The translations under genes were made by a program, and so were the position numbers. DNA of 64,000 bases from Candidatus Woesearchaeota archaeon (GTDB lineage Archaea > Nanobdellota > Nanobdellia > Woesearchaeales > JAGVYF01): assembly GCA_041650315.1 (NCBI GenBank), contig JBAZLJ010000001.1, positions 141,237-205,236 of the forward strand. The letters are read 5' to 3'. The notes beneath the pieces are model-generated. The model searched no databases, was not told where the DNA came from, and was given only the letters and a program-made list of their open reading frames with translations. Within the stretch, counting starts at the first letter, position 1; every line of letters begins with the position of its first letter. Of this stretch, positions 8,463 through 53,357 are shown one piece after another.

Positions 8463-11312
8463 ATGGCTGAAAAGAAAAAGAAGGATAGGAAGTCTGCTAA
8501 CTCACCGGCAACATTGATAGATATTATTGAAAAAGAGAGTTTAACTGCAAAATCACAATTTAATTCTACTGCATCTGAAGGTGAACAAGTTTCTTTAGAG
8601 CAAAGAGCGACGACTTCTATATTAGAGATAGGTGACCTGGCCATAGGCACGAAAGTATTCAACCCCGACATATTGAAAGGATTAGGCTATTTCCTTGAAT
8701 CAAATGGTTATGATAAAAAAATAAAGCAAGTGATTATCGCTGGTGGTCTGAAACCGGCTATTCCTTTATTCTGGTCAGTACGTTATGGAGATTTGATGAG
8801 ATTTTTAGGCAATGATCCCGAAAGGAATGATTATGGTGAAGTCGGACGTGTCATTGAAGAATGCAAGGATCTTGTAGACGAGCTTAAGAAGTATGCTGAA
8901 AAATATTGGAAAGGAAAAGTATCCACCCCAAAAGAAGCAGAAGATATGGTCCAGAGGTATATGACTGAATTCTTCAATAAGTTGCCTGGCGCAAGAATCG
9001 ATTACTATCATGGTGATGAAGACAAGCTAAATATGAGAATGGCTGAAGAGATGGAAAGGCAGCGTATGCATGAGCAGAGAAAAGCAGAAGCTGAAGCTCA
9101 AAAAGAAAAAATTAGCCAAATGAAAGGAACATTAGATGATCTTGTTTCATCGAATACAGAATTGGAAAGAGAGAAGTTATATCATGCGCAGCTCAAGACT
9201 GTGCTTTCAGGAATATCTGTTGGATTGCAAGGACTCAATGATGATTCACAGAAGAAAGATTATATCATGAAATGGTTGAAGACTCCTGCTAATCGTAGCA
9301 CTATTCCACACGGCGAGAAAGGCAATGTGGAAGATATGCTCAATCTAACTCATCATACTGTGGATGAAGTGCAAGCGCAGATGGCAGAGCAGATTGTTGA
9401 AATTGATAAGCGTCTTATGGAGATAGACGCTGAAGCTGTCGCTAATACTGATGCGATGAATAAAGGTCAAGCTGAGATTGCTGATCTTGAAGCGAGGAAA
9501 GCTTCATTGGAAAGACCTTTGGAGAAGTTAGCGCATCTTACTGGGCAGTATTCAACCGCGCCTGGGGAAGAAGAGTTTATTTTCAAAATGGTAAAAGATG
9601 CATATAACGGCAGGCTTTATGACTTGTTCCAAGGATTGAATTTCCACGTGCACACTAGTTCAAAAGCAGATGTTGAGCTTGATTCCGGCGTAAGCACCAA
9701 GGCAAAAATTGCTGGCGAAGATGTAGGCAAAGCCGGACAGATTTATGAGATGGACGGAGAATTTAGCGCTCACGAGGTCGAATGCGGCGGTCAGAAATTG
9801 CTTATCGCAGTCATGCACAATATGAATCGTTCCAGCAATAGCGCTGGTTTGAATGATATTGAATTGATAGCTTTGGAGAATTCTTATCTTGAGAAAATGG
9901 CTGCTAATTACAAATCAAAGATGGGCAAAGTCCCAGACATATTCATAACTCAGCATGGCGCTGGCGGACTTAGGGTAAAAGCATTACCCAAGAAAAGAGA
10001 TGAAGTCAGCGAAGTCGGCTCGACAGAACGCGCGCCTATTCCTGAGATATGTATGGCAGTCAAGATTCCAGGTCTTGAAGACCTAGTTAAATTGCAGATT
10101 ATGAGGGACAAAGGTTTGAAAACACCTTCTACAATCAGGCAATCTAAAAAATTGAATGCTTCTGGCGCAACTATCCATACAGTGTTGGAAGATGGTTCGC
10201 ATGTAATCGAATATGTTGATTCAAGCTATCTTGCTGAAATCGGAGAATCTCTGACTCAGTTGGAAGGCATGGATAAGAAATCTGAAGAGTATAAGACATT
10301 GAAACAATCGCTTGATTCAAAAGTTTTGTTATCTAAACAGACTATTCGTAAGTCTTTGATTGCAGGAGATCTGCACGTAGGTGCGGGTAATCTGCCTGAC
10401 AAACCTTCTAATTACGAATATCTTGAGATGATGAAAAATTATGTTTTGTTGAATTATGTCTGGACTCAGAATGATCGTGCAGCATTGAGCGAAGTTATTA
10501 ATGGGGATCTTCCAAACATTCAAAGCCATTATAGTGAATGGGGCGATACTCCTGCAGCATTCGAACAGAAGCTTCAGAAAACTCTTGATGAAAGGATGGC
10601 TGCGATGGATGATTTATCTGTGAATAAGCAGAATAAAGGATTGAAAGAATTAGTGCATGATATCGCTAAAGAAGCAATCGATGCTTATAGAACAAGACCT
10701 ATCGCAAGCATAAGTCTGCAGATGGATGAAGCTGTCGCTCGTTTGAAACAGATATTCACTGACGTCCTTGGCGCAGGCGGAGAGCTTGTATTCGTTTCTG
10801 GAAATCACCCTAACAAGATTCCGGGCTATGATGAAGCAAAAGAACTTCGACGTGCGGTTCTTGGTTTGCAAGAGCAATACAAGGATCAAGTCAGGATTGT
10901 TGAAGGGCAAAGTTCAGGTCTTGGCGGTTCAGGCGTCATCAAAGACAAAGATGGCAAGAAAACATACTTCTGTCACGTACCACCAAGAGGCGGAAAAGAT
11001 TCAGTAGTCTCTTCAATGAAGAAAGCTCTTGGAACGGCTAATGATGCAGGACAATTCGTGCTATATCATGTCCATCAAGGAGAATGCGGTTATGCAGATG
11101 GCACAGCATATACAATCCCTCCTGGATTGCAAAATGCTTTGTATCCTGATGTGGCGGGTTATTTCTCAACCATACCTGGTTTCATGATGCATTATGGGTT
11201 GGTCGGAGAGAATACCGGCGTATATCACGCATGGCATTTCGTGCTAGGCAATACTTTGTTAAAGCATTATCCTGAGAATATCGCGAATGTGGGTTCTTCG
11301 AAACCCAATTAA
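8463..11312 (+). CDS. 949-aa protein: Lys-rich N-terminus, long central coiled-coil, C-terminal calcineurin-like metallophosphoesterase-like domain
   Basis: SD-like GGGAGG 8 nt upstream. Coiled-coil heptads ~aa 190-350 (EEMERQRMHEQRKAEAEAQKEK...). C-terminal motifs IAGDLHVGAGN (GDxHG-like), VINGDLPN (GD), VSGNHPNK (GNH), LYHVHQGE (HxH) appear in the order expected for an MPP fold. Confidence 0.6.
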   Translation: MAEKKKKDRKSANSPATLIDIIEKESLTAKSQFNSTASEGEQVSLEQRATTSILEIGDLAIGTKVFNPDILKGLGYFLESNGYDKKIKQVIIAGGLKPAIPLFWSVRYGDLMRFLGNDPERNDYGEVGRVIEECKDLVDELKKYAEKYWKGKVSTPKEAEDMVQRYMTEFFNKLPGARIDYYHGDEDKLNMRMAEEMERQRMHEQRKAEAEAQKEKISQMKGTLDDLVSSNTELEREKLYHAQLKTVLSGISVGLQGLNDDSQKKDYIMKWLKTPANRSTIPHGEKGNVEDMLNLTHHTVDEVQAQMAEQIVEIDKRLMEIDAEAVANTDAMNKGQAEIADLEARKASLERPLEKLAHLTGQYSTAPGEEEFIFKMVKDAYNGRLYDLFQGLNFHVHTSSKADVELDSGVSTKAKIAGEDVGKAGQIYEMDGEFSAHEVECGGQKLLIAVMHNMNRSSNSAGLNDIELIALENSYLEKMAANYKSKMGKVPDIFITQHGAGGLRVKALPKKRDEVSEVGSTERAPIPEICMAVKIPGLEDLVKLQIMRDKGLKTPSTIRQSKKLNASGATIHTVLEDGSHVIEYVDSSYLAEIGESLTQLEGMDKKSEEYKTLKQSLDSKVLLSKQTIRKSLIAGDLHVGAGNLPDKPSNYEYLEMMKNYVLLNYVWTQNDRAALSEVINGDLPNIQSHYSEWGDTPAAFEQKLQKTLDERMAAMDDLSVNKQNKGLKELVHDIAKEAIDAYRTRPIASISLQMDEAVARLKQIFTDVLGAGGELVFVSGNHPNKIPGYDEAKELRRAVLGLQEQYKDQVRIVEGQSSGLGGSGVIKDKDGKKTYFCHVPPRGGKDSVVSSMKKALGTANDAGQFVLYHVHQGECGYADGTAYTIPPGLQNALYPDVAGYFSTIPGFMMHYGLVGENTGVYHAWHFVLGNTLLKHYPENIANVGSSKPN

Positions 11313-11372
11313 TTTTATTTTTTGTCTCTTTTTTATATATGTTTTTATAGGTGGGATGCCTAGCAATATTGC

Positions 11373-12530
11373 ATGAATCTGGAAAAGAGGATAGGTTCTT
11401 GCGTAAAATCTCTTGCTCTAGGTCTTGCTGTGTCTTTAGGAAGTATTTTTTATCCGGTTGATTCTCGTGCGGACGATGTTAAATCAGTTTCACCAGCTGT
11501 TACAACTACTGCTAATCAGAATGTTGAGCGATTGAATAGAATGGATATAGATAAGATTGAAGAGTTCGCCGCGGGAATAAAATATGTTCCGTTTGATAGA
11601 TGTCGACGTATTAAATTAGAATCAGATAAGATAGAGGATTCTAGAATTAAGGAATTGGAAGAGATATTGCGAATGTCTTATCTTTATACTGAGAAAACAA
11701 GTAATAATTATATTTTAAAAGATAAACAAAGATTCACAAAATTGATATATGATACTTCTAAAAAAATAGGTTATAAGAATTTTGATAAGATGTCTATAGC
11801 TGAATTCATCAGATGGAACGCAAATCTTGTGATGTATTGGCATTCTTATTATAATGAGATGTTGAAATCTCCTGAAATAGCTGCTAAAGTTGATGGGGCT
11901 CATTTAGACGAGCTGTTGTATGCCGTTAACGGCAAAAAGGGAAAGACTTTTTTGATCTGTCGGAATATAAGTCCTTTACTTCAGATGGTTTTTGATTGCA
12001 CTAAGGATATTAATCCAAATCTTAAGAATACTTATTGTATATCTGTGGTTAATCAGACGCATATGTGGAATCTTTTTGTAACATTGACTAAAAAAGGACC
12101 TTATGCGGTTTCTATAGATCCAACTTTAGGGGATAATACTATGGCACATATGCAAAGTCAATTAGATTTTTCTAGCGGCGCTCATCGTGAGTTATTGCGA
12201 GACAAAGGTTATGTGCATTTATTAGCTGCTAAAATCTATTGTAATGAAAATGGTTTAATTGAATTATTGAAACGTTTAGAATTACATCAAGATTTTACTG
12301 ATAAAAATAAAATAGAATTGAATCGTTTCAGAACAAGTTCGCAGAATTATCTTCTGGCGCAATCTTTGAATCGGACTAATGAGATTATACAATTTTTCCC
12401 GCAATTATATAAATCTCGTATTCCTTCGATAGATAAATACATAAAATCTAATTTTGATATGATTCATTATAAGGTGGTAAGTAATTTAATTACTTTAGCG
12501 AAAACTCAGAAAGAGGTTTTATTCTTTTAA
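11373..12530 (+). CDS. Secreted hypothetical protein with a signal peptide
   Basis: 385 aa; N-terminus MNLEKRIGSCVKSLALGLAVSLGSIFYPVDSRADD; AT-rich gene. Confidence 0.55.
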   Translation: MNLEKRIGSCVKSLALGLAVSLGSIFYPVDSRADDVKSVSPAVTTTANQNVERLNRMDIDKIEEFAAGIKYVPFDRCRRIKLESDKIEDSRIKELEEILRMSYLYTEKTSNNYILKDKQRFTKLIYDTSKKIGYKNFDKMSIAEFIRWNANLVMYWHSYYNEMLKSPEIAAKVDGAHLDELLYAVNGKKGKTFLICRNISPLLQMVFDCTKDINPNLKNTYCISVVNQTHMWNLFVTLTKKGPYAVSIDPTLGDNTMAHMQSQLDFSSGAHRELLRDKGYVHLLAAKIYCNENGLIELLKRLELHQDFTDKNKIELNRFRTSSQNYLLAQSLNRTNEIIQFFPQLYKSRIPSIDKYIKSNFDMIHYKVVSNLITLAKTQKEVLFF

Positions 12531-17146: not shown

Positions 17147-17857
17147 TTGACGTATTTCCGGAATATGGCAATTTTAGGGTTCAAAAACGTGATTGGCGAG
17201 TTCTCTTTCACTGATAAGTACAAAGTATCTAAGAAGAAAGCTGATCTTGTTATTGATGAATCCAATATAGATAAATATTCTAAAGTGCTGTTCCATTTCA
17301 AGAATAAGAAGTATTTTTCTAAGTTCTTCGCTGAGAATCTTAAATTGACTACATTAGCTCTTGGCGCAAAGAAGGATTACGACTTTTTGATACGTGAGAT
17401 TATCAAAGAGCTTGATCCGATGTATCGAGCTCGCAATACTCTGAAGGATGAGATATTGCTGAAGCATCTTGATGAAGTGATTGTCGAGAAAGAGATATAT
17501 CTTGAAAGCTTAATGGAAAAGTATTGTCCGAATTTGCTTGCAGTTGCGGATGCTTTTGTTGGAGGCAAGTTAATACATGCGGCTGGTTCTCTGGAGAAAC
17601 TTTCTAGGATGACTGCGCGCAAGATACAGATAATCGGCGCGGAATCGGCATTTTTCAGGTTCTTGAAATCGCAGAGGCGTGATGCGCCTATGTTTGGAAT
17701 CATATTCAATCATTCATTGGTCAAACGTTCATTGAATAAAGGCAAGGCTTCGCGTCTGCTTTCAGATAAGATTGTGATTGCTGCGCGTGTTGATTTTTTC
17801 AAGGGGGAATTTATAGGTGACAAGCTGAGGGAAGAGATTGAGCAAAAAATTGATTAA
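17147..17857 (+). CDS. nop5: Nop5 (Nop56/58) C/D box snoRNP protein, short form
   Basis: 236 aa; Nop domain ...GAESAFFRFLKSQRRDAPMFGIIFNHSLV...KGKASRLLSDKIVIAARVDFF; directly upstream of fibrillarin. Confidence 0.7.
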   Translation: MTYFRNMAILGFKNVIGEFSFTDKYKVSKKKADLVIDESNIDKYSKVLFHFKNKKYFSKFFAENLKLTTLALGAKKDYDFLIREIIKELDPMYRARNTLKDEILLKHLDEVIVEKEIYLESLMEKYCPNLLAVADAFVGGKLIHAAGSLEKLSRMTARKIQIIGAESAFFRFLKSQRRDAPMFGIIFNHSLVKRSLNKGKASRLLSDKIVIAARVDFFKGEFIGDKLREEIEQKID

Positions 17858-18410
17858 AAAGGAAGGAGAATATTATCTGGACGGACGTTTGTTCGACGCG
17901 TGCCATAGCAAGCTTGCTGCGGCCATGAAGAACGGATTGAAGAATCCGATTAAAAAAACTGATGTTGTACTTTATCTTGGCGCGTCGCATGGGTACACTC
18001 CTTCGTTTGTAGCTGAGATGTCTGCGTTTGTTTTCGCAGTTGAGTTTTCGCAATACGTGGTTGACGCACTTATTTCTGTTTGCAAGAAGGCGGGGAATAT
18101 TGCACCAATTCTTGCGGATGCTTCCAAGCCACTTACTTATTTCAGGCGCGTTTCTGGTGTTGATATTGTATATCAGGATATCGCGCAGAAGAATCAGGTT
18201 GGGATATTTGTTAAGAATATTAATCTGTTCTTGAAGAAAGGCGGGTATGGTCTTTTGGCTGTTAAGTGCAGAAGCATTGATGTTGCTGCAGATCCTGCTA
18301 AAGTATTCTCATCTGTAAAGTCTGAATTAGAAAAGCATTTAAAGATTGTAAGTTATACTTCTCTTGAACCTTTTGAGAAGGATCATTATTTCGTGATTGT
18401 GAGAAAATGA
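17838..18410 (+). CDS. flpA: Fibrillarin-like rRNA/tRNA 2'-O-methyltransferase
   Basis: 190 aa; [19 protein letters not shown] (cf. VLYLGAASGTT) and C-terminal ...[16 protein letters not shown]...[12 protein letters not shown]. Confidence 0.75.
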
Positions 18411-27273: not shown

Positions 27274-27861
27274 TTATTCTTCTTTCGTATCTTCTTTAAT
27301 TTTAAGATTCTCTCTGAATTCTTCGTTATTTGTTATCTTTGATTCGTGTAACTGCGCTCTTTTTTTCTCAAGCCATTTGTAAACGGATGCATGAGGACTT
27401 CCTGTCAGCAATGCTTCGACTGCTTTCCTTGCGGTTGTCACATTTTCAGGCTCTCCGATTATAGCGATGGTTTTTCCATAGACCGAAATATAAGTTTCAG
27501 TGTGATCTTCAATTATGTTCCTTGTCTTGCCGTCTTTTCCGATGACTCTTCCTTTGATCCTGTTCAATGTGTTAGCATTCTTGGTGAAGTCATTCAAATT
27601 TATCATGTTAAGAATATAATCCGGTTTTAGTAATAATAATGCCACTTCGGGATTGAAACCGCGACCTACTGCTTTGACTATTTCTCTTGCAGAAAGCAGA
27701 CCTAATGGGTCAGAACCTTCGATAGTAACATCGCCTTCTTTAGAATCAATTATGAGTTTAGTATGGGTTGTCTCCTCGATCTTCTTCTTGGTTTCACCTG
27801 ATTTGCCAATTAGAACTGCGATTCTGATTTTCGGCGCTTTGGTTTCGTAGGAGTATTCCAT
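27274..27861 (-). CDS. KH-domain RNA-binding protein (aDim2/Pno1-like, two type-I KH domains)
   Basis: 195 aa; IGKSGETKKKIEE... and IGKDGKTRNIIED... GxxG KH loops; adjacent to rio1, a pairing conserved in archaea. Confidence 0.8.
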   Translation of the reverse strand: MEYSYETKAPKIRIAVLIGKSGETKKKIEETTHTKLIIDSKEGDVTIEGSDPLGLLSAREIVKAVGRGFNPEVALLLLKPDYILNMINLNDFTKNANTLNRIKGRVIGKDGKTRNIIEDHTETYISVYGKTIAIIGEPENVTTARKAVEALLTGSPHASVYKWLEKKRAQLHESKITNNEEFRENLKIKEDTKEE

Positions 27862-27960
27862 GGTGGTGATATGTCTTTTGCAGACATTATATACGATTGT
27901 ATATGATTAATTTAAAAAGCTGATGCTCTATTTAAAAGGCTTGCTATTTTAAAAAGCCAG

Positions 27961-28668
27961 TTATTTTCCGGTGACTTGTTTTTTTAGTTCTTCAGACGTT
28001 ATTTTCGCTCCGTGCTTTGTGAAGAATGTAGCAATGTTATGCACATCCTTGTCGAGCAGTTCTTTGGCGTTCTGCGTGCTTACCGGCATTGCCTGTGAAA
28101 AGTCTATGAATACTGGTTTCTCATTATAATTTAGGATATTGAATGAAGACAAATCGCCGTGCACAAGTCCTGCTTGGTACAGCTTTTTCATGTTCGAAAT
28201 GACCATTTCTAAGAATTTCTTAGGATTTTCAGGCGGATAATCTTTGAGTTTTGGCGCTACATCGTCATCGCCTATGAATTCCATGATAAGTATATTGTCT
28301 TTAATCACAATAGGTTTCGGGATTGATACTCCTGCTTCTCTTGCTTTCATAAGGTTCCTGAATTCCCTTTGGGTCCAAGCGAATATGATCTTCCTTTTGT
28401 GCTTCTTTAGCCAGAGATATCTTGGATCTGACCTAATGTAATCATACATCTTATTGAAATCGCAGGTTTCAAGCCTATGGATCTTGACTATGACCCTTTC
28501 GCCACTTTTAGTGCTTGCTGAGAATATGTGGGATTCCTTGCCTATGCTAATAGGGCTTTTAAGTTCAATGAAATGGCCTTTGCTGGAAAGCTCGAATAGA
28601 TCTCTATTTATGAATCCGTCAAATACCCCTTGGTATGTCTTCCAGGCTTCTTTTGTCTTTTTGACCAT
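27961..28668 (-). CDS. rio1: RIO-type serine kinase Rio1
   Basis: 235 aa; LVHGDLSSFNIL catalytic loop, IDFSQAM. Confidence 0.85.
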   Translation of the reverse strand: MVKKTKEAWKTYQGVFDGFINRDLFELSSKGHFIELKSPISIGKESHIFSASTKSGERVIVKIHRLETCDFNKMYDYIRSDPRYLWLKKHKRKIIFAWTQREFRNLMKAREAGVSIPKPIVIKDNILIMEFIGDDDVAPKLKDYPPENPKKFLEMVISNMKKLYQAGLVHGDLSSFNILNYNEKPVFIDFSQAMPVSTQNAKELLDKDVHNIATFFTKHGAKITSEELKKQVTGK

Positions 28669-28680
28669 ATTTCCTTTATA

Positions 28681-28708
28681 AATAGCCTTATTTATAAGGG
28701 TATCGCTC
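28681..28708. promoter_or_regulatory. Palindromic double TATA box (cctttataaata-gcct-tatttataaggg) followed by GGTATCG; promoter of the rio1 operon (leaderless) and possibly bidirectional
   Basis: TATA centred ~-27 from the rio1 ATG; the same TTTATAAAGGTATCG arrangement recurs at 34751-34769 and 55244-55262. Confidence 0.5.
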
Positions 28709-28769
28709 TATTTCATCTACTATATATTTCATATATAATAATCAGAAAGCTTTATAAATAACCCCTAGT

Positions 28770-28945
28770 TCTGTTCAGCTACAGAAGAATTGCGTGAATG
28801 GGTCCTCTTTTGAGCTGAAACTACTAAATGTTTTGGCGGTGAAAAAAGAGACACTCTTATGCAATCCAGCCCGTCACGAGAGTACTCAAAGGAGCACACG
28901 CTAAAAGCAGGCCATGATAATTGGGAGTTAGTGTTACGGGCAACA
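28770..28945. ncRNA. Candidate structured ncRNA in a GC-enriched island of the 390-bp rio1-dnaG intergenic region (identity unresolved; strand uncertain)
   Basis: Local GC ~45% vs ~35% background. Complementary segments GUUCAGCU(28773-80)/AGCUGAAC(28813-20) and GCCCGU(28868-73)/ACGGGC(28936-41). AAAGCAGGCC loosely resembles the SRP RNA helix-8 AGCAGG motif. The overlapping 61-aa ORF has atypical composition. Confidence 0.3.
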
Positions 28946-29112
28946 TTCATTTCACATTCAACAAATCATATATCACACAAAACAAACGCAGAATAAGTTC
29001 AATTTCACAGATCATCACAAATCAAGAGTCAAAAGGGGTATCGGATAGCAATTAGGTAGTGCATGATTGTGTTAAAATACTTATTCTAGCAATCCATTCG
29101 GAGGCGATTAAA

Positions 29113-30471
29113 ATGGGAAAAATAAGCCCAGTATCAGCAAAATACATAATCAACGCATCAATCAACATTGATGGAGTAGTAGATAGGCCGGACGTAATCG
29201 GCGCAATATTCGGCCAGACTGAAGGCCTATTAGGCTCTGACTTAGAGTTAAGAGAGCTTCAAAGGTCAGGCAGAATCGGCAGGATAGAAGTAAACGTAGA
29301 CACAAAGACCGGAAAATCAGTAGGTAATATTGTAATTCCTTCTTCATTAGATAAAGCGGAGACTGCAATCGTTGGAGCATCTTTAGAGATAATCCAAAGG
29401 ATTGGTCCATGTAATGCTAAAATCTTAGTAGCTAACATAGAAGATGTCAGGATCTCAAAACGTTCATTCGTTGTTGAAAGAGCTAAAGAGCTTTTGAAAA
29501 CTTTGATGGATAATGTGATGCCAGATTCACAGGAATTGGCAGAAGAAGTAGCTCATTCCGTAAGAGTAACCGAAATTGGTGAATACGGAAAAGATAAACT
29601 TCCATGCGGTCCTTCAATCGAAGATTCTGATGAAGTCATAGTTGTAGAAGGTCGTGCGGATGTATTGACATTATTGAAACATGGTTTCAAGAACTGCATC
29701 GCATTGAACGGAAATTCAATTCCAGAGACTATAATCGAGCTTTCGAAGAAGAAAGTCTTGACAGCTTTCGTTGATGGAGACAGAGGCGGAGTATTAATCT
29801 TGAGAGAATTGTTCGCTCAGGTTGATCTAGATTTCGTGACCAGAGCTCCAGACGGAAAAGAAGTTGAAGAATTGGCTAAGAAAGAATTGCATAAAGCGCT
29901 TAGGTCAAGAGTATCTGTAGAACAAGCTAAAGTAGAGGTCGAGAAATTGCTCTCTATCGAAGGCAAAAGAAATTCACAGAACTTGTACACCGGCGTTATG
30001 CAGAGAAGGCCGCAAACAAGTGCAACACCTTCCTCAAGGCCAGTATCTAGTACTTCTTCAAGCCCTAGCTCAAGCATGAGTTCAAGTTCCAGCTCTAGTT
30101 TCCAGAGATCAGCGCCTGTATCAAGGCCAATCTCAGCTAGTGCTCCAATGAGCGTATCTGCGCCTAAAACAGTGATAACTGCTGAAGAAAAGCAGAAATT
30201 CAAGGAAATGCTTGAATCATTGATAGGCACAAGAGGCGGATATATCTTGAACAAGGAATTGACCATACTGGGTAAAGTGCCAGTATCTGAGTTGATGCCA
30301 ACATTGAAGAGCTTGAATACTGCAGTATATGCTGTTGTGTTCGACGGCGCGATTGACAAGGTTCTTGCTAACGTAAGCGAGAAGATTCCAGTGACCCATA
30401 TTGTCGCTATGCATTCGACCGTGAAACCAAGCGAGACTTCAGTGAACGTTTTCACAATCAATGACTTATAG
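29113..30471 (+). CDS. dnaG: Archaeal DnaG primase-like protein (Toprim; exosome-associated) with a Ser-rich low-complexity insertion
   Basis: Start chosen at MGKISPV (SD GGAGG 9 nt upstream; the ORF track starts at 29059). VIGAIFGQTEGLLG N-terminus, Toprim EGRADVLTLLKHGFKNCIALNG. Ser-rich stretch ~nt 30000-30160. Confidence 0.85.
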   Translation: MGKISPVSAKYIINASINIDGVVDRPDVIGAIFGQTEGLLGSDLELRELQRSGRIGRIEVNVDTKTGKSVGNIVIPSSLDKAETAIVGASLEIIQRIGPCNAKILVANIEDVRISKRSFVVERAKELLKTLMDNVMPDSQELAEEVAHSVRVTEIGEYGKDKLPCGPSIEDSDEVIVVEGRADVLTLLKHGFKNCIALNGNSIPETIIELSKKKVLTAFVDGDRGGVLILRELFAQVDLDFVTRAPDGKEVEELAKKELHKALRSRVSVEQAKVEVEKLLSIEGKRNSQNLYTGVMQRRPQTSATPSSRPVSSTSSSPSSSMSSSSSSSFQRSAPVSRPISASAPMSVSAPKTVITAEEKQKFKEMLESLIGTRGGYILNKELTILGKVPVSELMPTLKSLNTAVYAVVFDGAIDKVLANVSEKIPVTHIVAMHSTVKPSETSVNVFTINDL

Positions 30472-36153: not shown

Positions 36154-37335
36154 ATGTTCAATAGAAAAGCTCAGGAAGGCGGCGGATCTGCTGCTATTTT
36201 AGTCGCATTGATTGCATTGTTCATTCTCGTATATCTTTTATTCGTACCACCAAGCGTAAGGCTTGAGATATTAGAAGGAGATGGTACTGAAACTGATAGT
36301 TCTGATGATGAAGTCACTGTAAATGGAGCTGTACTATTGCGTGAGAATCCTGGTTCAGTTGTTGAAGAAGGAAGCACTTCTTTATCGCATAGCATGCCAT
36401 CATTGAACTTGTATACTAAAAGCGAAGGCAAAGTGCTTGAGAATCTAGGCGGAGTTGCGATTGCTCGTTCTGATTTCAGCTCAACTTTGAAAAGCTATCC
36501 TTTCACTATATCCAATCTAGGTAATGTCAATAATGTGATGTTGACTTTCAATGTAATCACTTCTGAAGGCAATTTGATAGTTAAATTGAATGGCGTTGAA
36601 ATATTGAATAAGCAAGTGACTGGTTCAGTTGAACCTATAGTCATTGCAAAAGGTTTGCTTAAAGAGAATAATCTGCTTGATTTTGATGTGACTTATCCAG
36701 GCTGGAGATTCTGGGCAAAGAATGATTATGAATTATCAGCTGTTGCTTTGCGAGCAGATGTCACTGACACCGAGCATAAGAAAGCTACAACGCAATTCTA
36801 TATCGATTCTGAAGAGAAATCTAGTCTCAGAAGCGCTTTATTATACTTCTTCCCTTATTGCGGAGCTAATGCTGATACTATGACTATGAAGATAAACGGC
36901 AATCAAGTATTCAGAGGAACTCCTCAATGCGGATACAGCAACAGGTTTGAATTATCGCCTGAGCAATTGCAGTCCGGAGAGAATAATGTAGAATTCGATA
37001 TTGCGGGCGGGTCATATACTATTACACAATTGAAAATCAATACTGAATTGAAAGCTAAGAAGAATACCATATATCATTTCGAAATAAGTGATAAGCAATA
37101 TGTGAATATCACTGATAGAGATTATGATGTGTATGTATCTCTTAAGTTCCCTTTGGATTATGAAAGAAGGGAAGGCAAGCTCTATATCAATTCTGATATA
37201 AAATCATATGATACATCTGATTCAATATTCCAGTACAAAATAACAGATTTCGTTAGGGAAGGATTCAACTCGGTCAGGATAGTGCCTGAAGCTTCCTATG
37301 AAATAGACGAAATTAAAGTCTGGCTCAAGAAGTGA
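36154..37335 (+). CDS. Membrane-anchored (N-terminal TM) beta-rich extracellular protein; first gene of a 5-gene surface locus
   Basis: 393 aa; SAAILVALIALFILVYLLFV TM; TATA plus GGTGAT SD upstream. Confidence 0.6.
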   Translation: MFNRKAQEGGGSAAILVALIALFILVYLLFVPPSVRLEILEGDGTETDSSDDEVTVNGAVLLRENPGSVVEEGSTSLSHSMPSLNLYTKSEGKVLENLGGVAIARSDFSSTLKSYPFTISNLGNVNNVMLTFNVITSEGNLIVKLNGVEILNKQVTGSVEPIVIAKGLLKENNLLDFDVTYPGWRFWAKNDYELSAVALRADVTDTEHKKATTQFYIDSEEKSSLRSALLYFFPYCGANADTMTMKINGNQVFRGTPQCGYSNRFELSPEQLQSGENNVEFDIAGGSYTITQLKINTELKAKKNTIYHFEISDKQYVNITDRDYDVYVSLKFPLDYERREGKLYINSDIKSYDTSDSIFQYKITDFVREGFNSVRIVPEASYEIDEIKVWLKK

Positions 37336-37363: not shown

Positions 37364-40057
37364 GTGATGGCTGAAGAGAGCAAACTGAAGTCTTTGTTGA
37401 TCACCATAATCAATCTTATAGTAGCACCTTTCAAAGAGAAAAATATGGAGTTTGAGGTGCCTTTAACTGTTGCTCTTATCGCAGATCTCACTCCTTTTTT
37501 TAGTTTTATTTTTGGGATATCATTTTTAAAAGATTTATTCGGGTCTAGTTTCATCGCTTTCTTCCCTGATTATAATCAGATTATGTTTATGACAATATTG
37601 TTTTTTATCGCATGGGGATATTTTGGTGTTACTTATTCAATTTTGTTCTTTTTCAAATTTGTTCCTATTGTGTATATCTTTCCGATATTCACAACAATTA
37701 TCCTGACTAATTACCTCAATTCCATACAAGGCGAGGCATCTGATGCGGCTGGCAAATTCATCGGTATACTTGCTGGGGCGAAGAAGACTTATCCATTCTG
37801 GGCGATTGTTTTCAGAGTCATTGCCGGGATTATGCTTTGTGTGGTTGTTTTAGGCAATATGACAAATTCAGCGAATGTTCTGATGGGCAATTTGCCAGGT
37901 GTAATCGCGCAGCCTCTATATGAAAAAGCATTGCCTGAGTATCAGGCGCAGGTTATTACTTTGAGGCAGATGCTAGATCCTAGAACTGCTTATACTGCCG
38001 CAATTAACAGCATTAAGAAGACTGTTTCTTATCCAGTTACTTCAGTCAAATCGTGGTTCACTACACAAATCAATGTAGCGACTGGCGGATATTACATGGG
38101 TCAGGTCGATAAGTATGCCAATAAAGATCTTGGCGTTTATTTGCGTGAAGTGAAACCAACTGAAAGATGGTTCTATCTAGATGAATCCACTTATCAAGTT
38201 CCAGCTATCCAAATAATGGCGAGCGTTGAGGGTGCGGCGATTGATGTGGATGATTGCGAGCAATACTTGACCGAAGCTGAAACTGATTTTGAAATTAAGA
38301 AAAATCAGCTTACTGCTGAGCAGGAAAAAGCTTATTATGCAAACATATTGTATAAAAATAAAGGAGATTGCGAACTCAATCAAAAAGTCAAATTAGGTTG
38401 CGCAATCAGTAATAAAAGAATAAACGGCACAGTGAATCCTTCTACGATTTCTTTATTCGAAATACAGAATGGTTTTGCGATGCTTGAATGCAATTTTGAT
38501 AAGGCTAAACTTACAAAGCCTAGTTCTGAGCTTGTTGATATCACTGCAAATTTCCCCTTCGTCACAAAATCTTATTTGAAAACTTATTTCATGGATCTGA
38601 AAAGGTTCCGTGATATGAAACTTCAGAAACTTGATCCTTTGACCTATTATAAAATAACAGATACAAAACCTATTGCGGTTTATACCGGCGGTCCTGTTAT
38701 GATTGGGATTGGCATAAATGATGTGCTTCCTTTGACACTTATCACCGATATAGATTCTCCTGAACCAATTAGATCGTACAGCTTGGGTATAACCCTTGAT
38801 AATAAATGGACTGGCAAGATCGCTGAATTGATGGATATTGTAGTTGTGCTTCCACCACAACTTGAATTGAGATGTCCTCCTTATTTCGAAGCGGATCCTA
38901 TTGAAAGCAATAAATATATCTTGACTGATTTCAGCAAGAAGCAAGTAATAGCTGAGAAAGGGTTCAAAGAATCAAAGACCTATAATTGCAGGATACTGCC
39001 TAAAACAATTCTAGCTGCGCGTGAATTATTGAATAATGTTCCGTTAGCCACTAAGTATGTGCAAGTGACTGCATCCTATAAATATGAAATATCTGAGTCG
39101 ACTTCCATTACATTAAGGCAAGGTGATGGTATAAAATCTGATTTGAGTTCGGGTTGTACTGATACTTCTACACCTTGCGGGGATTATGACGGATGTTATT
39201 GCACGGAAGGATGTCCTGCAGGTAATTATTTGTCAGAAGTCAGTCGTGAGTATAATTGCAATGGAAAGTATGTGGCTATTCCTGAAGCTGTTATGACTAC
39301 TACGAGCGGTACTGGGACCGGAACGATTACTTCTGGCGAGAAACCTTATAGCTGGGATGCGGATACTACTGGTTTGAGTCCAGTATCTTCGATCACAGGA
39401 ACGACTGTGCCTAATGAACCTTCCTCTGGATTCAATTCTGCTCATGCTACAGAGTTTGCAGATGGGAGAACTTATGTCACTTCTTATTATACTCCAGTTA
39501 GAAGTGATTTTAGCGTTTGGTCTACTTTCAAACAAACAGCAGATTATAAGGATTATATGTACACAGATAGTAAAGGCAGAGAGTTATTGACTGATGCTTA
39601 CTTCACTAAAATAGGACGTGATAACTCCTTCAGATGGTGCGTAATTTCTCCGAAAGGATTCTATGAAGAAGTGCAATGCCAAGGTGAGGGTGTGGATAAT
39701 CAGAAAAAATTAGCTTATAGCTATGCGACAATCAGGATAGAGGATGAAACTGCTGGAGCTACTCCCTTATCCGGTACTGGTCTTTCCTATACCCCTAGAT
39801 ATACTTTGGCTGGACCAAGCAGCCTTCAAGGCAGAGAAATATACCTTTTCTTTGGCGTAAAGAGTTCTTGGAATGGATGTTATAAAGTTCAAGATACTGG
39901 AAGTGCAATCCAAGGCAATCATCTAGATCTTTTTAGAGGGTTTTCTAAAGAAACACATCCATCCCAATTCCCGAAAGCATATCTCTATCCTGGATGCGTA
40001 GCTGCATATGAAAAATTGAAAGCAGAACAAGCAGCTGCTGCGACGATAACACAATGA
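37364..40057 (+). CDS. Large polytopic membrane protein with Cys-rich extracellular region and C-terminal 3D/RlpA-like double-psi beta-barrel (DPBB) domain
   Basis: 897 aa; 4-5 N-terminal TM helices; CTDTSTPCGDYDGCYCTEGCPAGNY; C-terminal ...GREIYLFFG...NGCYKVQDTGSAIQGNHLDLFRGF (3D-domain DTG..I.G..iDlf signature). Confidence 0.65.
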   Translation: MMAEESKLKSLLITIINLIVAPFKEKNMEFEVPLTVALIADLTPFFSFIFGISFLKDLFGSSFIAFFPDYNQIMFMTILFFIAWGYFGVTYSILFFFKFVPIVYIFPIFTTIILTNYLNSIQGEASDAAGKFIGILAGAKKTYPFWAIVFRVIAGIMLCVVVLGNMTNSANVLMGNLPGVIAQPLYEKALPEYQAQVITLRQMLDPRTAYTAAINSIKKTVSYPVTSVKSWFTTQINVATGGYYMGQVDKYANKDLGVYLREVKPTERWFYLDESTYQVPAIQIMASVEGAAIDVDDCEQYLTEAETDFEIKKNQLTAEQEKAYYANILYKNKGDCELNQKVKLGCAISNKRINGTVNPSTISLFEIQNGFAMLECNFDKAKLTKPSSELVDITANFPFVTKSYLKTYFMDLKRFRDMKLQKLDPLTYYKITDTKPIAVYTGGPVMIGIGINDVLPLTLITDIDSPEPIRSYSLGITLDNKWTGKIAELMDIVVVLPPQLELRCPPYFEADPIESNKYILTDFSKKQVIAEKGFKESKTYNCRILPKTILAARELLNNVPLATKYVQVTASYKYEISESTSITLRQGDGIKSDLSSGCTDTSTPCGDYDGCYCTEGCPAGNYLSEVSREYNCNGKYVAIPEAVMTTTSGTGTGTITSGEKPYSWDADTTGLSPVSSITGTTVPNEPSSGFNSAHATEFADGRTYVTSYYTPVRSDFSVWSTFKQTADYKDYMYTDSKGRELLTDAYFTKIGRDNSFRWCVISPKGFYEEVQCQGEGVDNQKKLAYSYATIRIEDETAGATPLSGTGLSYTPRYTLAGPSSLQGREIYLFFGVKSSWNGCYKVQDTGSAIQGNHLDLFRGFSKETHPSQFPKAYLYPGCVAAYEKLKAEQAAAATITQ

Positions 40058-41031
40058 TCTACAAATATATAGCGATAATCTGTATCTTAATGTTCATATC
40101 TAGCTGTACTTCTACAAATCCTTCGTATATCGATATCAAGAAGATACGTACAGGCACTGACGGAATATCTATGGTGTTCCTTCCTCAGGGAGATATACCT
40201 ATGATGGAAGAAGAGAGCCGTACTGTTTCTGTGCAGTTGAAGAATGACGGCGCGTTCGATGTAGGGCATATGTATTTCCTGCTGGGCACTGAAAGCGATT
40301 ATGTGACTCTCGGAAAGACTTATTTCAACGGAGGAGAGGGTAAACAGGAAGACAAGCAAGGTCAGCTCACGACCTATCTGCCTGAGAATCTGTTCAAAGG
40401 CAAATCTTTGAAAACTGTTGTCGGTGATTATGCTGAATATGATGCGGAACTCACTACGAAAAAGATAACTCTTAGCAAATATCAAGACACTTTATTGAGC
40501 GCTATATTGTGCTATGAATATGGTACTGTAGCAGAAGATGAAGTGTGCATCCAGCCATCTGTTTCGGTGATCGGATTGCAAGCAGCATGCGTACCTAAAG
40601 ATTTGACTTTCTCTAGTCAAGGCGCGCCTCTTGTTGTGAATAAAGTCGAAGTGAAAAGCACATTGACAACTAACAAACAGATAAAGACCTTATTTAAAAT
40701 ATATTTCGAGAATAAAGGCATAGGCGATGTATTGAACTGGAATACCGGCAGATTGGTCTGTTCATCTAAACCTATGGGTGAAGAGAAGATATGGAATTAT
40801 TTCATAATGGCTGCTTTCCTTGGCGATAAGGAGATAGAATGCAGAGTGCCTAAGACTACAGTATTGGGAGATAGTTACTGGTTGGTAAGATTAAAGGGCG
40901 GGAAAGCTGAAGTCGTATGCGAATCGACAAGTCCTAGCGGAGTTGCTTATACAACGCCATTCACAGTCAAAGCATTTTATGATTATACACAGACATTGAC
41001 TAAGAAACTAACTATTGAACGTACTAGTTAG
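40054..41031 (+). CDS. Secreted lipobox-type protein, paralog 1 of 3
   Basis: 325 aa; signal peptide ending ...LMFISSCTST; shares C...FSSQGAPL...K..VK...K.L.KIYF.N.G.GDV with the next two genes. Confidence 0.6.
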   Translation: MIYKYIAIICILMFISSCTSTNPSYIDIKKIRTGTDGISMVFLPQGDIPMMEEESRTVSVQLKNDGAFDVGHMYFLLGTESDYVTLGKTYFNGGEGKQEDKQGQLTTYLPENLFKGKSLKTVVGDYAEYDAELTTKKITLSKYQDTLLSAILCYEYGTVAEDEVCIQPSVSVIGLQAACVPKDLTFSSQGAPLVVNKVEVKSTLTTNKQIKTLFKIYFENKGIGDVLNWNTGRLVCSSKPMGEEKIWNYFIMAAFLGDKEIECRVPKTTVLGDSYWLVRLKGGKAEVVCESTSPSGVAYTTPFTVKAFYDYTQTLTKKLTIERTS

Positions 41032-41089
41032 CAAAATATTTATATACAGCAATTTATATAATATATAGTATCGAAAAAGAGATGATAGC

Positions 41090-42304
41090 ATGAAAGTACC
41101 TAAACTATTGGCAGTATTATCGATTCTTATAGTCATTTTCAGTTCTGGATGCACAAGTTCCACAACACCTAATCTCGATGAAGAGATATATAGGGGCACT
41201 AGAGCATTGACAATGAATTTTTTGCAGGATGTGCCGCCTACTGAGACTTTTGCTAGCACAGGTGATGAGTATGAGATGGCTATCGAATTGAAGAATGAAG
41301 GCACTTATCCAGTATACGGCAAGATTTATTTCTCAGGTTTTGATCCTAACATAATCAGTTTCTCTAAACTAGGAATGGATCAAGGTTATTCTTTCCCATC
41401 ATCAAATTGCGGTTTTAAAGAGATAATTCCAAGATCTAAATTGAATCCTCCTGGCGGAGCTTGCGTTGAAGAATTCAAAGGCAAACTTAATCTTGATTCA
41501 ATCACTGATTCATATTCAGCGAATATTTTCGCTCAGGCAGTCTATAAATATATAACAGATGCTAGCATTGTCATGTGCGTAGATCCTGACGTGTATCACG
41601 TATCACCTGCGCAAAGAGCTTGCACAATGAGCGCGTTCTCATCAGGTTCCGGACAAGGGGCGCCTCTCGGAATTACTAAGATAGAACCGACTGCCATAGG
41701 TGGCGGCCAGATACTTTATAGAATTTATATCCAGAACATGGGCGAAGGAGAAGTTGTCGACTATATGAAAGCGCCTTATGAGCTGAAACCTAGCGATGTA
41801 GGTAAAGTTAGATACAGAATAGGAACGCCTGCGAATACAAGAACGGGTATTACGGTATCTGCTAACGGTGGATCAGTGTTTGTAGGCAATGCAATTGCTG
41901 ATATAACTGGCAGAGCTATCGGATTGTCTTATACTGATTCTAATTTCAGGATAAATTTCAATCCTAAGTCAAACTATGCATATTCTGAGGATGTAATCAG
42001 ATTGAACAACGGCCAAGGAGTAATCACTAAGGTCATCGATTACAGCGGAAATGCTTATGCATTCCAGACTCCTCTGCAGATAACATTGGAATATGGATAT
42101 ATGCATGCGGTCCAGAAGAATATAGAGATAGTCAATATCGATCAATATAATTCTGCATACGGCGCCGGTGGTATCAGATTCGTTTATGATAAGAACGGCA
42201 AGAGAGTAGAATTGAATCCAGACGGCTCTGTGAGATATAGGGATGATGATTTCCAGATAGATCTCCCTTCAGATACATTGGATCTGAATAATCTTTTCAA
42301 ATAA
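41090..42304 (+). CDS. Secreted lipobox-type protein, paralog 2 of 3
   Basis: 404 aa; SP ...VIFSSGCTSS; motif CTMSAFSSGSGQGAPLGITKIE...ILYRIYIQNMGEGEV. Confidence 0.6.
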   Translation: MKVPKLLAVLSILIVIFSSGCTSSTTPNLDEEIYRGTRALTMNFLQDVPPTETFASTGDEYEMAIELKNEGTYPVYGKIYFSGFDPNIISFSKLGMDQGYSFPSSNCGFKEIIPRSKLNPPGGACVEEFKGKLNLDSITDSYSANIFAQAVYKYITDASIVMCVDPDVYHVSPAQRACTMSAFSSGSGQGAPLGITKIEPTAIGGGQILYRIYIQNMGEGEVVDYMKAPYELKPSDVGKVRYRIGTPANTRTGITVSANGGSVFVGNAIADITGRAIGLSYTDSNFRINFNPKSNYAYSEDVIRLNNGQGVITKVIDYSGNAYAFQTPLQITLEYGYMHAVQKNIEIVNIDQYNSAYGAGGIRFVYDKNGKRVELNPDGSVRYRDDDFQIDLPSDTLDLNNLFK

Positions 42305-42316
42305 GGAGGTATCATA

Positions 42317-43285
42317 ATGAATAAAATAATCACATTAATTGTTATTGCGATGATGGTGTGCATGTCAGGATGCACCGGTTCTAAAACGCCTACTAAAGCA
42401 GCAGTCACGCCTTTCATTGGCGGAAGCGATGCTTTGAAAGTAAGCTTTGTCGAAGGAACTCCACCTGCACAAATATATGACTCAGGCAGTTCAGCGTTTG
42501 CTATCGGTCTTAAATTGGATAATGTAGGTGAGCATACTGTATTAGCTACTGATGGTTATGTGGAGATTCTTGGTTTGAATGCGCAAGACTTTGGTCTTGG
42601 TTCACAAGTTGATTTGAAAAAATCTTTTGTCTCTGATATCAGAGGCGCTAAAAAGAATCTTGACGGCACCACACTTGAAGGCGATTCAGTCTATATGGAT
42701 TTCTCGGATATGAAATATCTTCCAGATCTAAAAGGAGATGTTGAATTCAAGTTCCGTGCTAATCTATGTTATGATTATGTGACGCAGACAAGTTCAAAGA
42801 TTTGCTTGAACAAGAATCCTTTAGCAGGTCTTGGAGAAGCAATTTGCAAAGTTTCTGCTGATAAAACAGTCTATAATTCAGGCGGCCCTATTCAAATTGT
42901 GAAAGTCAAGGAAAGCCCTCTAGGCAATAACAAAATTCAATTGCTTTTCGAGATTGGACATAAAGGTTCTGCAAACAATCTGTTCTATAAAATGGGCACT
43001 GCTTGCGATGATGCATTGACAAATACAGACAGATATAAAGTGCTTGTGAAAGTCACATCTGATGTGAATGGTGCAACTGCGCAATGTTCAGGTCTTGAAT
43101 CTGCAGTTAGCGGGTCTGAAGGCTATGTCACATTGTTCGGCGGCAAGAACAGAGCAATTACTTGCGTGCTTGACTTAGCGGCTGTTGATAGTGTCTACGA
43201 GGACTTATTCAATGTCGATCTGTATTACAGATATAATCAATTCCTTGATAAGACAATAGAAATACAGGATACTGGCAGCAGTTAA
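42317..43285 (+). CDS. Secreted lipobox-type protein, paralog 3 of 3
   Basis: 322 aa; SP ...VCMSGCTGS; motif CKVSADKTVYNSGGPIQIVKVKE...IQLLFEIGHKGSANN. Confidence 0.6.
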   Translation: MNKIITLIVIAMMVCMSGCTGSKTPTKAAVTPFIGGSDALKVSFVEGTPPAQIYDSGSSAFAIGLKLDNVGEHTVLATDGYVEILGLNAQDFGLGSQVDLKKSFVSDIRGAKKNLDGTTLEGDSVYMDFSDMKYLPDLKGDVEFKFRANLCYDYVTQTSSKICLNKNPLAGLGEAICKVSADKTVYNSGGPIQIVKVKESPLGNNKIQLLFEIGHKGSANNLFYKMGTACDDALTNTDRYKVLVKVTSDVNGATAQCSGLESAVSGSEGYVTLFGGKNRAITCVLDLAAVDSVYEDLFNVDLYYRYNQFLDKTIEIQDTGSS

Positions 43286-52442: not shown

Positions 52443-53357
52443 ATGGATAATTCATTAAAATTCATTTCGATTTCTTTAGCGGTTCTTTTTGTTGTGATTA
52501 TAGGTTTTGGTTCTCCTTTGGTGGAGAATACCATTGTAGGCGATGCAATTCGAAATCAATTTGAGAGTAATCGTATTGCGCTTAACTGGCACCAATGCAC
52601 AGAAGGTTATAAGTGCATTTCAAAAAATACTTTAGTTTATCAGTCTGAAAATTGCAGGCATACCAAAACAACTTATTGCAGATATGGGTGTGAAATGGGC
52701 GTGTGTAAAACTGCACCTAATTTCATACCGCCATATGATTGCGCTGATACTGATGATGGCGCGGATAAATTCTATATGAAAGGAACTGTCACTGGTAGCA
52801 TTCCAAGCATAGTAACAACACTCACTGATCTATGTGAGAATCCTGATACTAAAGAATCTTGCGAAGGCAGCGTGGATTGTCCTCTTCTGGAGTTTTCATG
52901 CACAAGAACATGGAACAAATATACTGGTTATATAGTCAAAGAAAGGTATACATGCCCTTACGGATGCAAAGAAGGAGCTTGCTTGGCTGGATGTCCTATC
53001 GAGTATGTCAAAGCAGTATGTCCTGACGGAATGATTGAGAATCCAACATACGATGAAAATGGTTGCCATATAACTGGCGAATGCATACAAATGCCTGCCT
53101 GCACTGACTCCGATCTAGGTCAAGATCATTATTTGATGGGGATTAACTCTGGCTATTTCATCGGAGAAGATACTACTTTTGATAGGTCTTCTGCAGTGTT
53201 CCAACAATTCAATGATTCATGCAGTGGTATAAATCTAAATACATTGAAAGAGTTCTATTGCACAAATGATGGGTATCTTACCTTTAATTCTTTCACCTGC
53301 CCAGGCAGATGCGTTAATGGCGCTTGCATAGAACCAGTGTTAGAAACAACGAACTGA
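52443..53357 (+). CDS. Cys-rich secreted/membrane-anchored protein with repeated CxxGCxxGxC modules
   Basis: 304 aa; N-terminal TM; CRYGCEMGVCK, CPYGCKEGACL, CPGRCVNGACI. Confidence 0.5.
   Translation: MDNSLKFISISLAVLFVVIIGFGSPLVENTIVGDAIRNQFESNRIALNWHQCTEGYKCISKNTLVYQSENCRHTKTTYCRYGCEMGVCKTAPNFIPPYDCADTDDGADKFYMKGTVTGSIPSIVTTLTDLCENPDTKESCEGSVDCPLLEFSCTRTWNKYTGYIVKERYTCPYGCKEGACLAGCPIEYVKAVCPDGMIENPTYDENGCHITGECIQMPACTDSDLGQDHYLMGINSGYFIGEDTTFDRSSAVFQQFNDSCSGINLNTLKEFYCTNDGYLTFNSFTCPGRCVNGACIEPVLETTN

Follow-up and report, generated by a model that had tools for sequence, protein, structure and literature searches.

What occupies the gap between the divergent genes rio1 and dnaG of a Candidatus Woesearchaeota archaeon (contig JBAZLJ010000001.1 of assembly GCA_041650315.1), in the 64,000-nucleotide stretch, positions 141,237 to 205,236 of the contig, that was analysed as a whole and is called the window below? 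The best explanation, to which we assign a probability of roughly 0.8, is a double-hairpin box H/ACA guide small RNA (sRNA) with a 3' hairpin that would direct modification of helix 69 (H69) of 23S ribosomal RNA (rRNA) and an accessory 5' hairpin. The element at 28787-28946 on the plus strand would yield an sRNA of ~160 nt, transcribed from the TATA box at 28751-28758. This sRNA is unannotated and absent from Rfam, yet related to a published sRNA of Nanoarchaeum equitans; its kind is already known, and it implies no new mechanism.

The gap is non-coding over 390 nt up to the GTG at which the dnaG open reading frame (ORF) opens, as an earlier note on this DNA had stated, and over 444 nt up to the likelier ATG start. 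The same note had pointed to a GC-rich island, and the ~45% GC that it gave for 28770-28945 is accurate (0.449); the background is 0.386 in the whole window, not ~35%, and the island is prominent only against its non-coding flanks (0.27 and 0.34). Of all 176-nt windows, 11% are as rich in GC, and so are the neighbouring genes. Folded as a single sequence, the region does no better than shuffles on the plus (z = -0.57) or the minus strand (z = -1.29). Because the GC content is unremarkable, the fold energy resembles that of shuffles and Rfam is silent on the element, the window alone makes a weak case for an RNA; the support comes from relatives.

As relatives we used 80 loci from Woesearchaeota and Nanoarchaeota assemblies, retrieved with DnaG (55-64% amino-acid identity). 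With the 444-nt gap as query, blastn and nhmmer found a block of 75-87% nucleotide identity in ~70 of the 80 loci, which in every matching locus precedes dnaG by 150-450 nt and has the same orientation; its core corresponds to window positions 28868-28945. Profile searches returned a single copy per locus, that of the window at 28787-28948. A covariance model, R1, built from 31 sequences, recovered the element in the window and in 77 of the 80 loci, always upstream of dnaG, in plus orientation and in one copy per locus; the three loci that gave no match have hardly any sequence in front of dnaG. A non-coding block better conserved than the protein encoded next to it speaks for a functional element, either RNA or DNA. 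The conserved part lies inside the interval 28710-29058 that had been put forward as a candidate RNA, but is narrower (28787-28946).

A small protein could in principle account for such a block, and two short ORFs are present in the window, one of 61 aa on the minus strand (28765-28950) and one of 45 aa on the plus strand (28859-28996). However, no frame is open in more than 7 of the 31 relatives, divergence follows no three-base periodicity (0.37/0.29/0.30), single-base insertions and deletions fall within the conserved block, there is no Pfam match, and the substitutions in the helices are compensatory. We give this explanation practically no weight. The 61-aa frame, the sole ORF that had been noticed here and one said to differ in composition from the local proteome, exists by chance, given the frames closed in most relatives and the lack of codon periodicity.

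The relatives instead support a pair of hairpins. We wrote the two-hairpin structure down from alignments with visible compensatory changes and then counted its pairs on a MAFFT alignment of 31 sequences, in which 86.4% of the cells are paired, against 32-41% when the partners are slid by 1-3 columns. Changes on both sides of the pair occur in 29 of the 43 pairs, and none of 500 shuffles reaches any of these measures. RNAalifold independently recovered the two lower stems and, in part, the upper ones, finding the lower stem of hairpin 1 unaided, including an extra pair 28797-28857. A model-guided alignment of 78 sequences raises the number of pairs with both-sided changes to 38 of 43, although this alignment is biased towards the model and the MAFFT alignment is the cleaner test; within it, 98% of the cells of the hairpin 2 lower stem are paired, and six of its nine pairs change on both sides. 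Two long-range complementary pairs had been read from the window. One, GCCCGU/ACGGGC (28869-74 with 28936-41), is part of this covarying helix. The other, GUUCAGCU/AGCUGAAC, holds only as UUCAGCU/AGCUGAA, and the 5' half of that pair (28774-81) falls in a non-conserved stretch that precedes the conserved RNA; AGCUGAAAC instead partners GUUUUGGC in a covarying apical stem. That the element is a structured, conserved RNA is close to certain, and conservation and covariation in relatives lend strong support to the earlier proposal of a structured non-coding RNA on the plus strand with a promoter of its own.

Not all relatives carry both hairpins: about 35 have hairpin 2 alone, with a GGGC-U-ACA end and a TATA box of its own, the conserved box preceding these single-hairpin versions as well. 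Judged from the sequences, hairpin 2, on the 3' side, appears to be the ancient, universally retained part, and hairpin 1, on the 5' side, an accessory found in about half of the relatives.

Which class of RNA has this form? In archaeal H/ACA motifs, the lower stem has at least 7 bp, the upper stem at least 5 bp and the internal-loop strands 5-11 nt, a kink-turn (K-turn) or K-loop lies in the upper stem, and an ANA triplet lies 14-15 nt from the target position (PMC2377435); a second account gives the spacing as n+15 +/- 1 and places the distal G:A at 9-10 positions counted from the upper-stem base (PMC7075261). Both hairpins have stems and loops of these sizes, with 9 bp, 7/6 nt and 7 bp in hairpin 1 and 9 bp, 7/5 nt and 5 bp plus two non-Watson-Crick positions in hairpin 2. 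Each also contains a K-turn in sequence (C-stem, 3-nt bulge, GA opposite GA) with the distal G:A at position 9, and the G and A residues of the K-turns are 92-100% conserved. The distance from triplet to pocket is 15 nt in hairpin 1 (28851-28865); in hairpin 2 it is 16 nt from G28927 or 17 nt from A28926, at or just past the published limit, like the 17 nt of an active guide, stem-loop 2 (SL2) of sR-h45 from Haloferax volcanii. The 3' end is a canonical ACA, and the hinge between the hairpins is partly canonical, with CCA in the window. On these sequence features, the element is very probably a box H/ACA guide RNA.

The earlier note had considered other structured RNAs. Searches against Rfam 15 reported only a tRNA in the whole window at gathering thresholds, with no match to signal recognition particle (SRP) RNA (RF01857) or RNase P RNA (RF00373 and relatives), nothing on 28500-29300 at E<=10, and no match to the element when 15 related loci were searched. 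In favour of one of these two RNAs in divergent form, or of a box C/D sRNA, are a few short motif resemblances seen by eye and the K-turns, which are also found in C/D sRNAs and archaeal RNase P RNA. Both resemblances are due to chance, the SRP-like motif being part of a K-turn-capped apical stem and the RNase-P-like motif part of a K-turn and upper stem, and two independent hairpins with internal loops lack the C/D-C'/D' layout, the SRP helix 5/8 architecture and the P4 pseudoknot core. With no Rfam match even at E<=10, we regard these identities as having next to no probability. The lack of an Rfam hit had also been named as a reason to dismiss a structured RNA altogether; Rfam is silent here and the RNA is real, so that such a rule would reject it wrongly. 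The features of the predicted gene and of its neighbours are collected in Table 1.

Table 1. Features of the predicted H/ACA sRNA gene and the flanking genes, in window coordinates; pairing and base counts refer to the aligned relatives.
Feature	Position	Strand	Remarks
rio1	27961-28668	-	Pfam RIO1, E=6e-57; start at 28668
TATA box TTTATAAA of the sRNA gene	28751-28758	+	~30 nt upstream of first stem; block cTTTATAwA at the same distance in 22 aligned loci
Hairpin 1, whole	28789-28865	+	
Hairpin 1 lower stem, 5' strand, 9 bp	28789-28797	+	partner 28857-28865; both-sided changes in 8/8 modelled pairs
Hairpin 1 internal loop, 5' strand AUGGGUC, putative 5' guide	28798-28804	+	nearly invariant in 31 two-hairpin sequences; unpaired
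Hairpin 1 upper stem, 5' strand, 7 bp	28805-28811	+	partner 28844-28850; both-sided changes in 6-7/7 pairs
Hairpin 1 K-turn, non-bulged strand G-A	28812-28813	+	G/A 38/40, A 37/40 hairpin-1 sequences; directly 5' of apical stem
Hairpin 1 apical stem-loop (K-turn C-stem)	28814-28837	+	28814-21 with 28830-37; both-sided changes in 8/8 pairs
Hairpin 1 K-turn, bulged strand: GGU bulge, then G-A	28838-28843	+	G 34/40, A 38/40; window has one extra A
Hairpin 1 internal loop, 3' strand ACACUC, putative 3' guide	28851-28856	+	core ACAC conserved; 15 nt to hinge triplet
Hinge triplet CCA (ACA in most relatives), in place of H box	28866-28868	+	first base A in 45/74; second and third mostly C, A
Hairpin 2, whole	28869-28941	+	
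Hairpin 2 lower stem, 5' strand GCCCGUCAC, 9 bp	28869-28877	+	partners 28931-33 and 28936-41, UU 28934-35 bulged
Hairpin 2 internal loop, 5' strand GAGAGUA, putative 5' guide	28878-28884	+	G,A,G,A,G,U kept in 72-78/78
Hairpin 2 upper stem, 5' strand, 5 bp	28885-28889	+	partner 28921-28925; both-sided changes in 4/5 pairs; then two non-Watson-Crick positions
Hairpin 2 K-turn, non-bulged strand G-A	28892-28893	+	G 72/78 (A in other 6); A 78/78
Hairpin 2 apical stem-loop (K-turn C-stem)	28894-28912	+	helices 6 and 7 covary; holds the SRP-like string 'AAAGCAGGCC'
Hairpin 2 K-turn, bulged strand: CAU bulge, then G-A	28913-28917	+	G 78/78; A 77/78
Hairpin 2 internal loop, 3' strand AGUUA, putative 3' guide	28926-28930	+	purine at 28926 in 77/78; G,U,U,A in 77-78/78
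ACA box	28943-28945	+	one spacer nt after lower stem; A 62, C 71, A 76 of 77 sequences
Pyrimidine-rich tail UUCAUUUC, probable transcription stop	28946-28953	+	function inferred
dnaG	ORF opens at GTG 29059; likelier start ATG 29113		GGAGG before ATG; Toprim domain

A published RNA has the same architecture. N. equitans possesses a single H/ACA sRNA of 159 nt, abundant in RNA-seq and located at genome positions 339411-339574 (Randau 2012, Genome Biol 13:R63; PMC3491384), in which two K-turn hairpins are joined by ACA alone and which is equipped with a box A promoter and T-rich stop of its own (PMC3491384). When searched with the profile of the Woesearchaeota RNAs, its sequence, taken from Additional file 2 of that paper, gives an nhmmer E=4.9e-12 over model positions 50-154. 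Hairpin 2 aligns base for base with N. equitans stem 2 in the functional parts (ACAGCCCGnCACGAGAGU...GGGnGUUAGUG..CGGGCAACA), the loop strands GAGAGU and GUUAGUG being identical. The two RNAs also agree in length (~159 nt in N. equitans), in the two K-turn hairpins joined by a hinge of three bases, ACA, that lacks an ANANNA H box, and in the box A promoter and T-rich stop; T-rich stretches after the ACA box occur in our relatives, too. In contrast, the loop strands of the N. equitans 5' hairpin (AGAGGUGUA / CCCACCG) differ from those found here (AUGGGUC / ACACUC) and would therefore have a different target, and the N. equitans gene sits between the tyrosyl-tRNA synthetase gene and a hypothetical gene, not upstream of dnaG. 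Because the 3' hairpins are homologous and the loop strands of the 5' hairpins differ, the element is the equivalent of the N. equitans sRNA, the 3' hairpin being conserved and the 5' hairpin variable and dispensable. In the literature, we found no description of an H/ACA RNA in DPANN archaea or Woesearchaeota beyond that of N. equitans.

The constant position in front of dnaG allows another interpretation, namely, that the element acts in cis as a structured leader of the dnaG mRNA, such as a K-turn operator to which L7Ae or some other protein binds to control dnaG expression. Such a leader would explain the strict linkage, as the element lies directly upstream of and co-oriented with dnaG in 77 of 77 informative loci, and a scan for bacterial-type promoters and terminators, uninformative for an archaeon, found no strong terminator. 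Yet the element has a conserved TATA box, an ACA and a pyrimidine tail of its own, the spacer of 140-290 nt to the dnaG start is poorly conserved, a TATA-like TTAAAATA and a Shine-Dalgarno sequence stand just before dnaG, and the N. equitans homologue is a discrete, abundant 159-nt RNA beside unrelated genes (PMC3491384). A leader is very unlikely on this evidence, and we favour an independent gene because of the poorly conserved spacer and the separate genomic context in N. equitans. From the usual archaeal distance between TATA box and start, transcription of this gene is predicted to begin near 28780-28785. The earlier note had taken a palindrome farther upstream for its TATA box; that sequence, TATAAATAGCCTTATTTATA at 28677-28696, is not conserved with the RNA, and the conserved box is TTTATAAA. 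Separated from the rio1 start codon by ~25 nt, the perfect palindrome (TATAAATA-GCCT-TATTTATA) probably serves as promoter for a leaderless rio1 mRNA and may be bidirectional.

Within the spacer between the sRNA and dnaG, we noticed the motif RCTTRTTCT (ACTTATTCTA in the window, 29083-29092), present in 12 of 12 aligned relatives. It is the sole conserved block of an otherwise divergent spacer, 20 nt before the dnaG ATG and just after TTAAAATA, and might belong to the start-site region or serve as an operator. The spacer also contains TCAT/ATCA-rich runs.

If the element is a guide RNA, what would it modify? Targets were sought in the 16S, 23S and 5S rRNAs of E. coli and in 120 archaeal rRNA loci (679 kb) from a metagenome scan with a conserved 23S anchor, none of which is recognisably from Woesearchaeota. 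There is no rRNA in the window, according to Rfam, or in the 80 related loci, and a search for Woesearchaeota 23S rRNA through spurious antisense ORFs in the protein database yielded one candidate only. Under the strict 'UN' model, in which two bases stay unpaired, there was no convincing site in the E. coli rRNAs, and in the 120 archaeal loci no site for hairpin 2 recurred and some antisense artefacts appeared. H69 emerged only after four unpaired bases were allowed, following the literature on sR-h45. SL2 of this H. volcanii RNA pairs with H69 leaving UAUG ('UVUN') unpaired and makes psi1940 and psi1942, which correspond to E. coli 1915 and 1917, at ACA-to-target distances of 17 and 19 nt (PMC7075261).

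Hairpin 2 fits H69 in the same configuration, with GUUA opposite UAAC (1911-1914), GAGAGU opposite ACUCUC (1919-1924) and UAUG unpaired. Rare variants of the guide read GAGAAU (locus L047) and AGGGAAU (locus L070). The pattern TAAC-TVTN-ACTCTC is found in 28 of the 120 archaeal rRNA loci, in 19 of them at the typical H69 offset and in most of the others nearby, as fits rRNA insertions; it has no antisense match and no site outside H69 in the 679 kb of archaeal rRNA operons, and the H69 type GGGAGUAACU[A/C]UGACUCUC is common in archaea. In a flexible scan, H69 was the most recurrent site for this RNA as well as for N. equitans stem 2. The published RNAsnoop targets of that stem (23S U614 and 16S U796) differ from the H69 site proposed here and are probably wrong, as its loop strands fit H69 under the 'UVUN' model.

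Like hairpin 2, the H69 guide of sR-h45 is the 3' hairpin of a double-hairpin H/ACA RNA, leaves four bases unpaired and has a longer ACA-to-target spacing than usual, 17 and 19 nt as compared with 16-17 and 18-19 nt here (Blaby 2011; Majumder 2020, PMC7075261). The likeness is one of published description. The two hairpins of sR-h45 are separated by a 56-nt spacer with an AUAGCUA H box, and its 5' hairpin targets U2605 (E. coli 2586), where hairpin 1 has no match. Afu-4, Pf7 and Pab40 of Archaeoglobus and Pyrococcus are likewise multi-hairpin RNAs with the last motif on H69 (P. abyssi psi2016), although with three motifs instead of two, and the comparison with them is one of layout (PMC2377435). 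We consider agreement with the experimentally characterised sR-h45 a stronger argument than the match statistics, and H69 is the likely target of hairpin 2, which would then be responsible for the conserved psi1915, psi1917 or both (E. coli numbering), like SL2 of sR-h45. The purine at 28926, present in 77 of 78 sequences, could also pair with U1915, and the modified position may be 1915, 1917 or both.

Instead of guiding psi1915/1917, the RNA might be an H/ACA-type ribonucleoprotein (RNP) scaffold for L7Ae and Cbf5, acting as a chaperone of rRNA folding or processing, as yeast snR30 and snR10 partly do, or an orphan guide with a target other than rRNA. The shortness of the pairing between the 3' guide and H69 (4-5 bp), the uncertain target of hairpin 1 and the neighbouring genes for Rio1 and a Pno1-like KH protein, which act in ribosome maturation, would be in keeping with such a role. 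Against it, the invariant loop strands match H69 in the geometry of the experimentally active SL2 of sR-h45, and a search for non-rRNA targets in the window and the 80 loci (690 kb of related genomic DNA) revealed no conserved alternative, the top matches being only the antisense of the RNA itself. A scaffold or orphan guide is therefore unlikely, although less so than a dnaG leader, and a guide for H69 remains our preferred reading of hairpin 2.

The site that recurs most for hairpin 1 is the A-loop in helix 92 of 23S rRNA, where a perfect match of 7+7 bp, GGGGGUGU-UC-ACCCAUU, occurs in 2 of the 120 loci, both of one lineage, and partial matches in ~40 others. Hairpin 1 would accordingly be an accessory guide, its best candidate target being GGGUGU / UC / ACCCAUU in helix 92 (U2554/U2555). 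At 28855 the guide varies between U and C, as would suit a G at position 2550 (E. coli). Our first guess at an A-loop target (GAGTGTTNACCCATT...GAGCTGGGTTTAGA) had no match in the metagenome scan and assumed an A at 2550 that is probably wrong, and at the site of sR-h45 SL1 (E. coli U2586), examined by hand, hairpin 1 forms 4 bp on one side and none on the other. In yeast, U2554/U2555 is modified by snR10; we know of no archaeon in which these positions are established as pseudouridine. All in all, the A-loop is a tentative target of hairpin 1, somewhat more likely wrong than right. For motif 2 of Afu-4, the target suggested at one time was A. fulgidus 2601, equivalent to P. abyssi 2647 and, by a +92 offset derived here, to U2555 of the A-loop; the assignment was later rejected by Muller et al. 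(PMC2377435). For stem 1 of the N. equitans RNA, the most frequent match lies ~75 nt before the GAGCUGGGUUUAGA block of 23S rRNA, near E. coli position 2500.

DnaG is a subunit of the archaeal exosome, and one could imagine that hairpin 1 pseudouridylates the A-loop and that the linkage to dnaG reflects a functional coupling, by co-transcription or by exosome-dependent 3' trimming of the guide. We consider this combination doubtful, well below the A-loop assignment taken by itself.

Several observations weigh against an H69 guide with an accessory hairpin. Both proposed targets come from the 23S rRNA of other archaea and not from that of the lineage itself. The H69 duplex has only 4 bp on the side of the 3' guide, which has been reported to be the more important one (PMC2377435, PMC7075261). 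Furthermore, the H69 match was found after several pairing models had been tried, which makes its statistics post hoc, and the perfect match of hairpin 1 in only 2 of 120 loci is of borderline significance given the amount of sequence searched. The fold energy of the single sequence is unremarkable on either strand, and no cbf5, nop10, gar1 or rpl7ae gene is encoded within the 64 kb window. The hinge is CCA in the window instead of ANA, the sole non-canonical feature, although a CCA box variant is known for one H/ACA RNA of Pyrobaculum calidifontis (PMC4652768).

By analogy with characterised archaeal H/ACA RNPs, L7Ae would bind the K-turn of each hairpin and Cbf5-Nop10-Gar1 the lower stem together with the ACA/NCA triplet; the internal-loop strands would pair with the rRNA that flanks a uridine, and Cbf5 would convert this uridine to pseudouridine. 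Conservation, covarying structure, the H/ACA features at sequence level, homology with the N. equitans sRNA and complementarity to archaeal H69 are shown here; that proteins bind the RNA, that it is expressed, what it modifies and how the lineage's own rRNA reads are inferred. Overlapping genes for Nop5 (Pfam Nop, E=1.5e-32) and fibrillarin (E=1e-53) at 17147-18410 (+) encode box C/D methylation-guide machinery, and the organism should therefore use guide RNPs of the L7Ae type. Rfam reports no C/D sRNA in the window; C/D guide genes may hide in other short gaps.

Directly upstream of the predicted guide RNA gene lie the genes for Rio1 and then for a KH protein resembling Pno1/Krr1, together at 27274-28668 on the minus strand, with topoisomerase VI A and B further out. 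In other systems, Rio1 and Pno1/Krr1-like KH proteins are maturation factors of the small ribosomal subunit, and the pair forms a small ribosome-biogenesis neighbourhood. On the other side, codons ~310-365 of dnaG (~30040-30200) specify a low-complexity insert rich in Ser and Pro (…SATPSSRPVSSTSSSPSSSMSSSSSSSFQRSAPVS…) between the Toprim part and the C-terminal domain, at which the GC skew becomes locally negative. Elsewhere in the window, several long ORFs of up to 949 aa (8463-12530, 36154-37335, 40054-43285, 48320-49693, 52443-53357 and 60060-61304) have no Pfam match at E<=1e-4, and the ORF at 37364-40057 has a weak match to a 3D domain only. A lone gene for a Cas4 or PD-(D/E)XK nuclease-like protein lies at 47378-48271 (-); there are no other cas genes among the annotated ORFs of the window, and no search was made for a CRISPR array.

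Two further observations concern the related contigs. One of them (L014) carries an RT-16 RNA (RF03019; 57 bits, gathering score 50) at 1330-1520 (-), ~2 kb upstream of its H/ACA gene; this RNA is not found in the window. Many others, L001 and L004-L006 among them, are labelled 'uncultured Methanosarcinales archaeon' and are likely mislabelled bins because their DnaG and sRNA place them with Woesearchaeota/Nanoarchaeota.

Archaeal H/ACA guide RNAs are poorly catalogued and those of this lineage are absent from Rfam, which is why annotation pipelines leave the gene as an unexplained 'long intergenic region' in these assemblies of Woesearchaeota and Nanoarchaeota; covariance model R1 and its alignment could seed an Rfam family. 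The comparison with N. equitans suggests a revision of the predicted target of stem 2 to H69, and the one- and two-hairpin variants offer a natural series for the study of gain and loss of guide hairpins. Pseudouridylation of H69 is one of the most conserved rRNA modifications, and, if the target assignment is true, small-genome DPANN archaea would keep its RNA-guided form.

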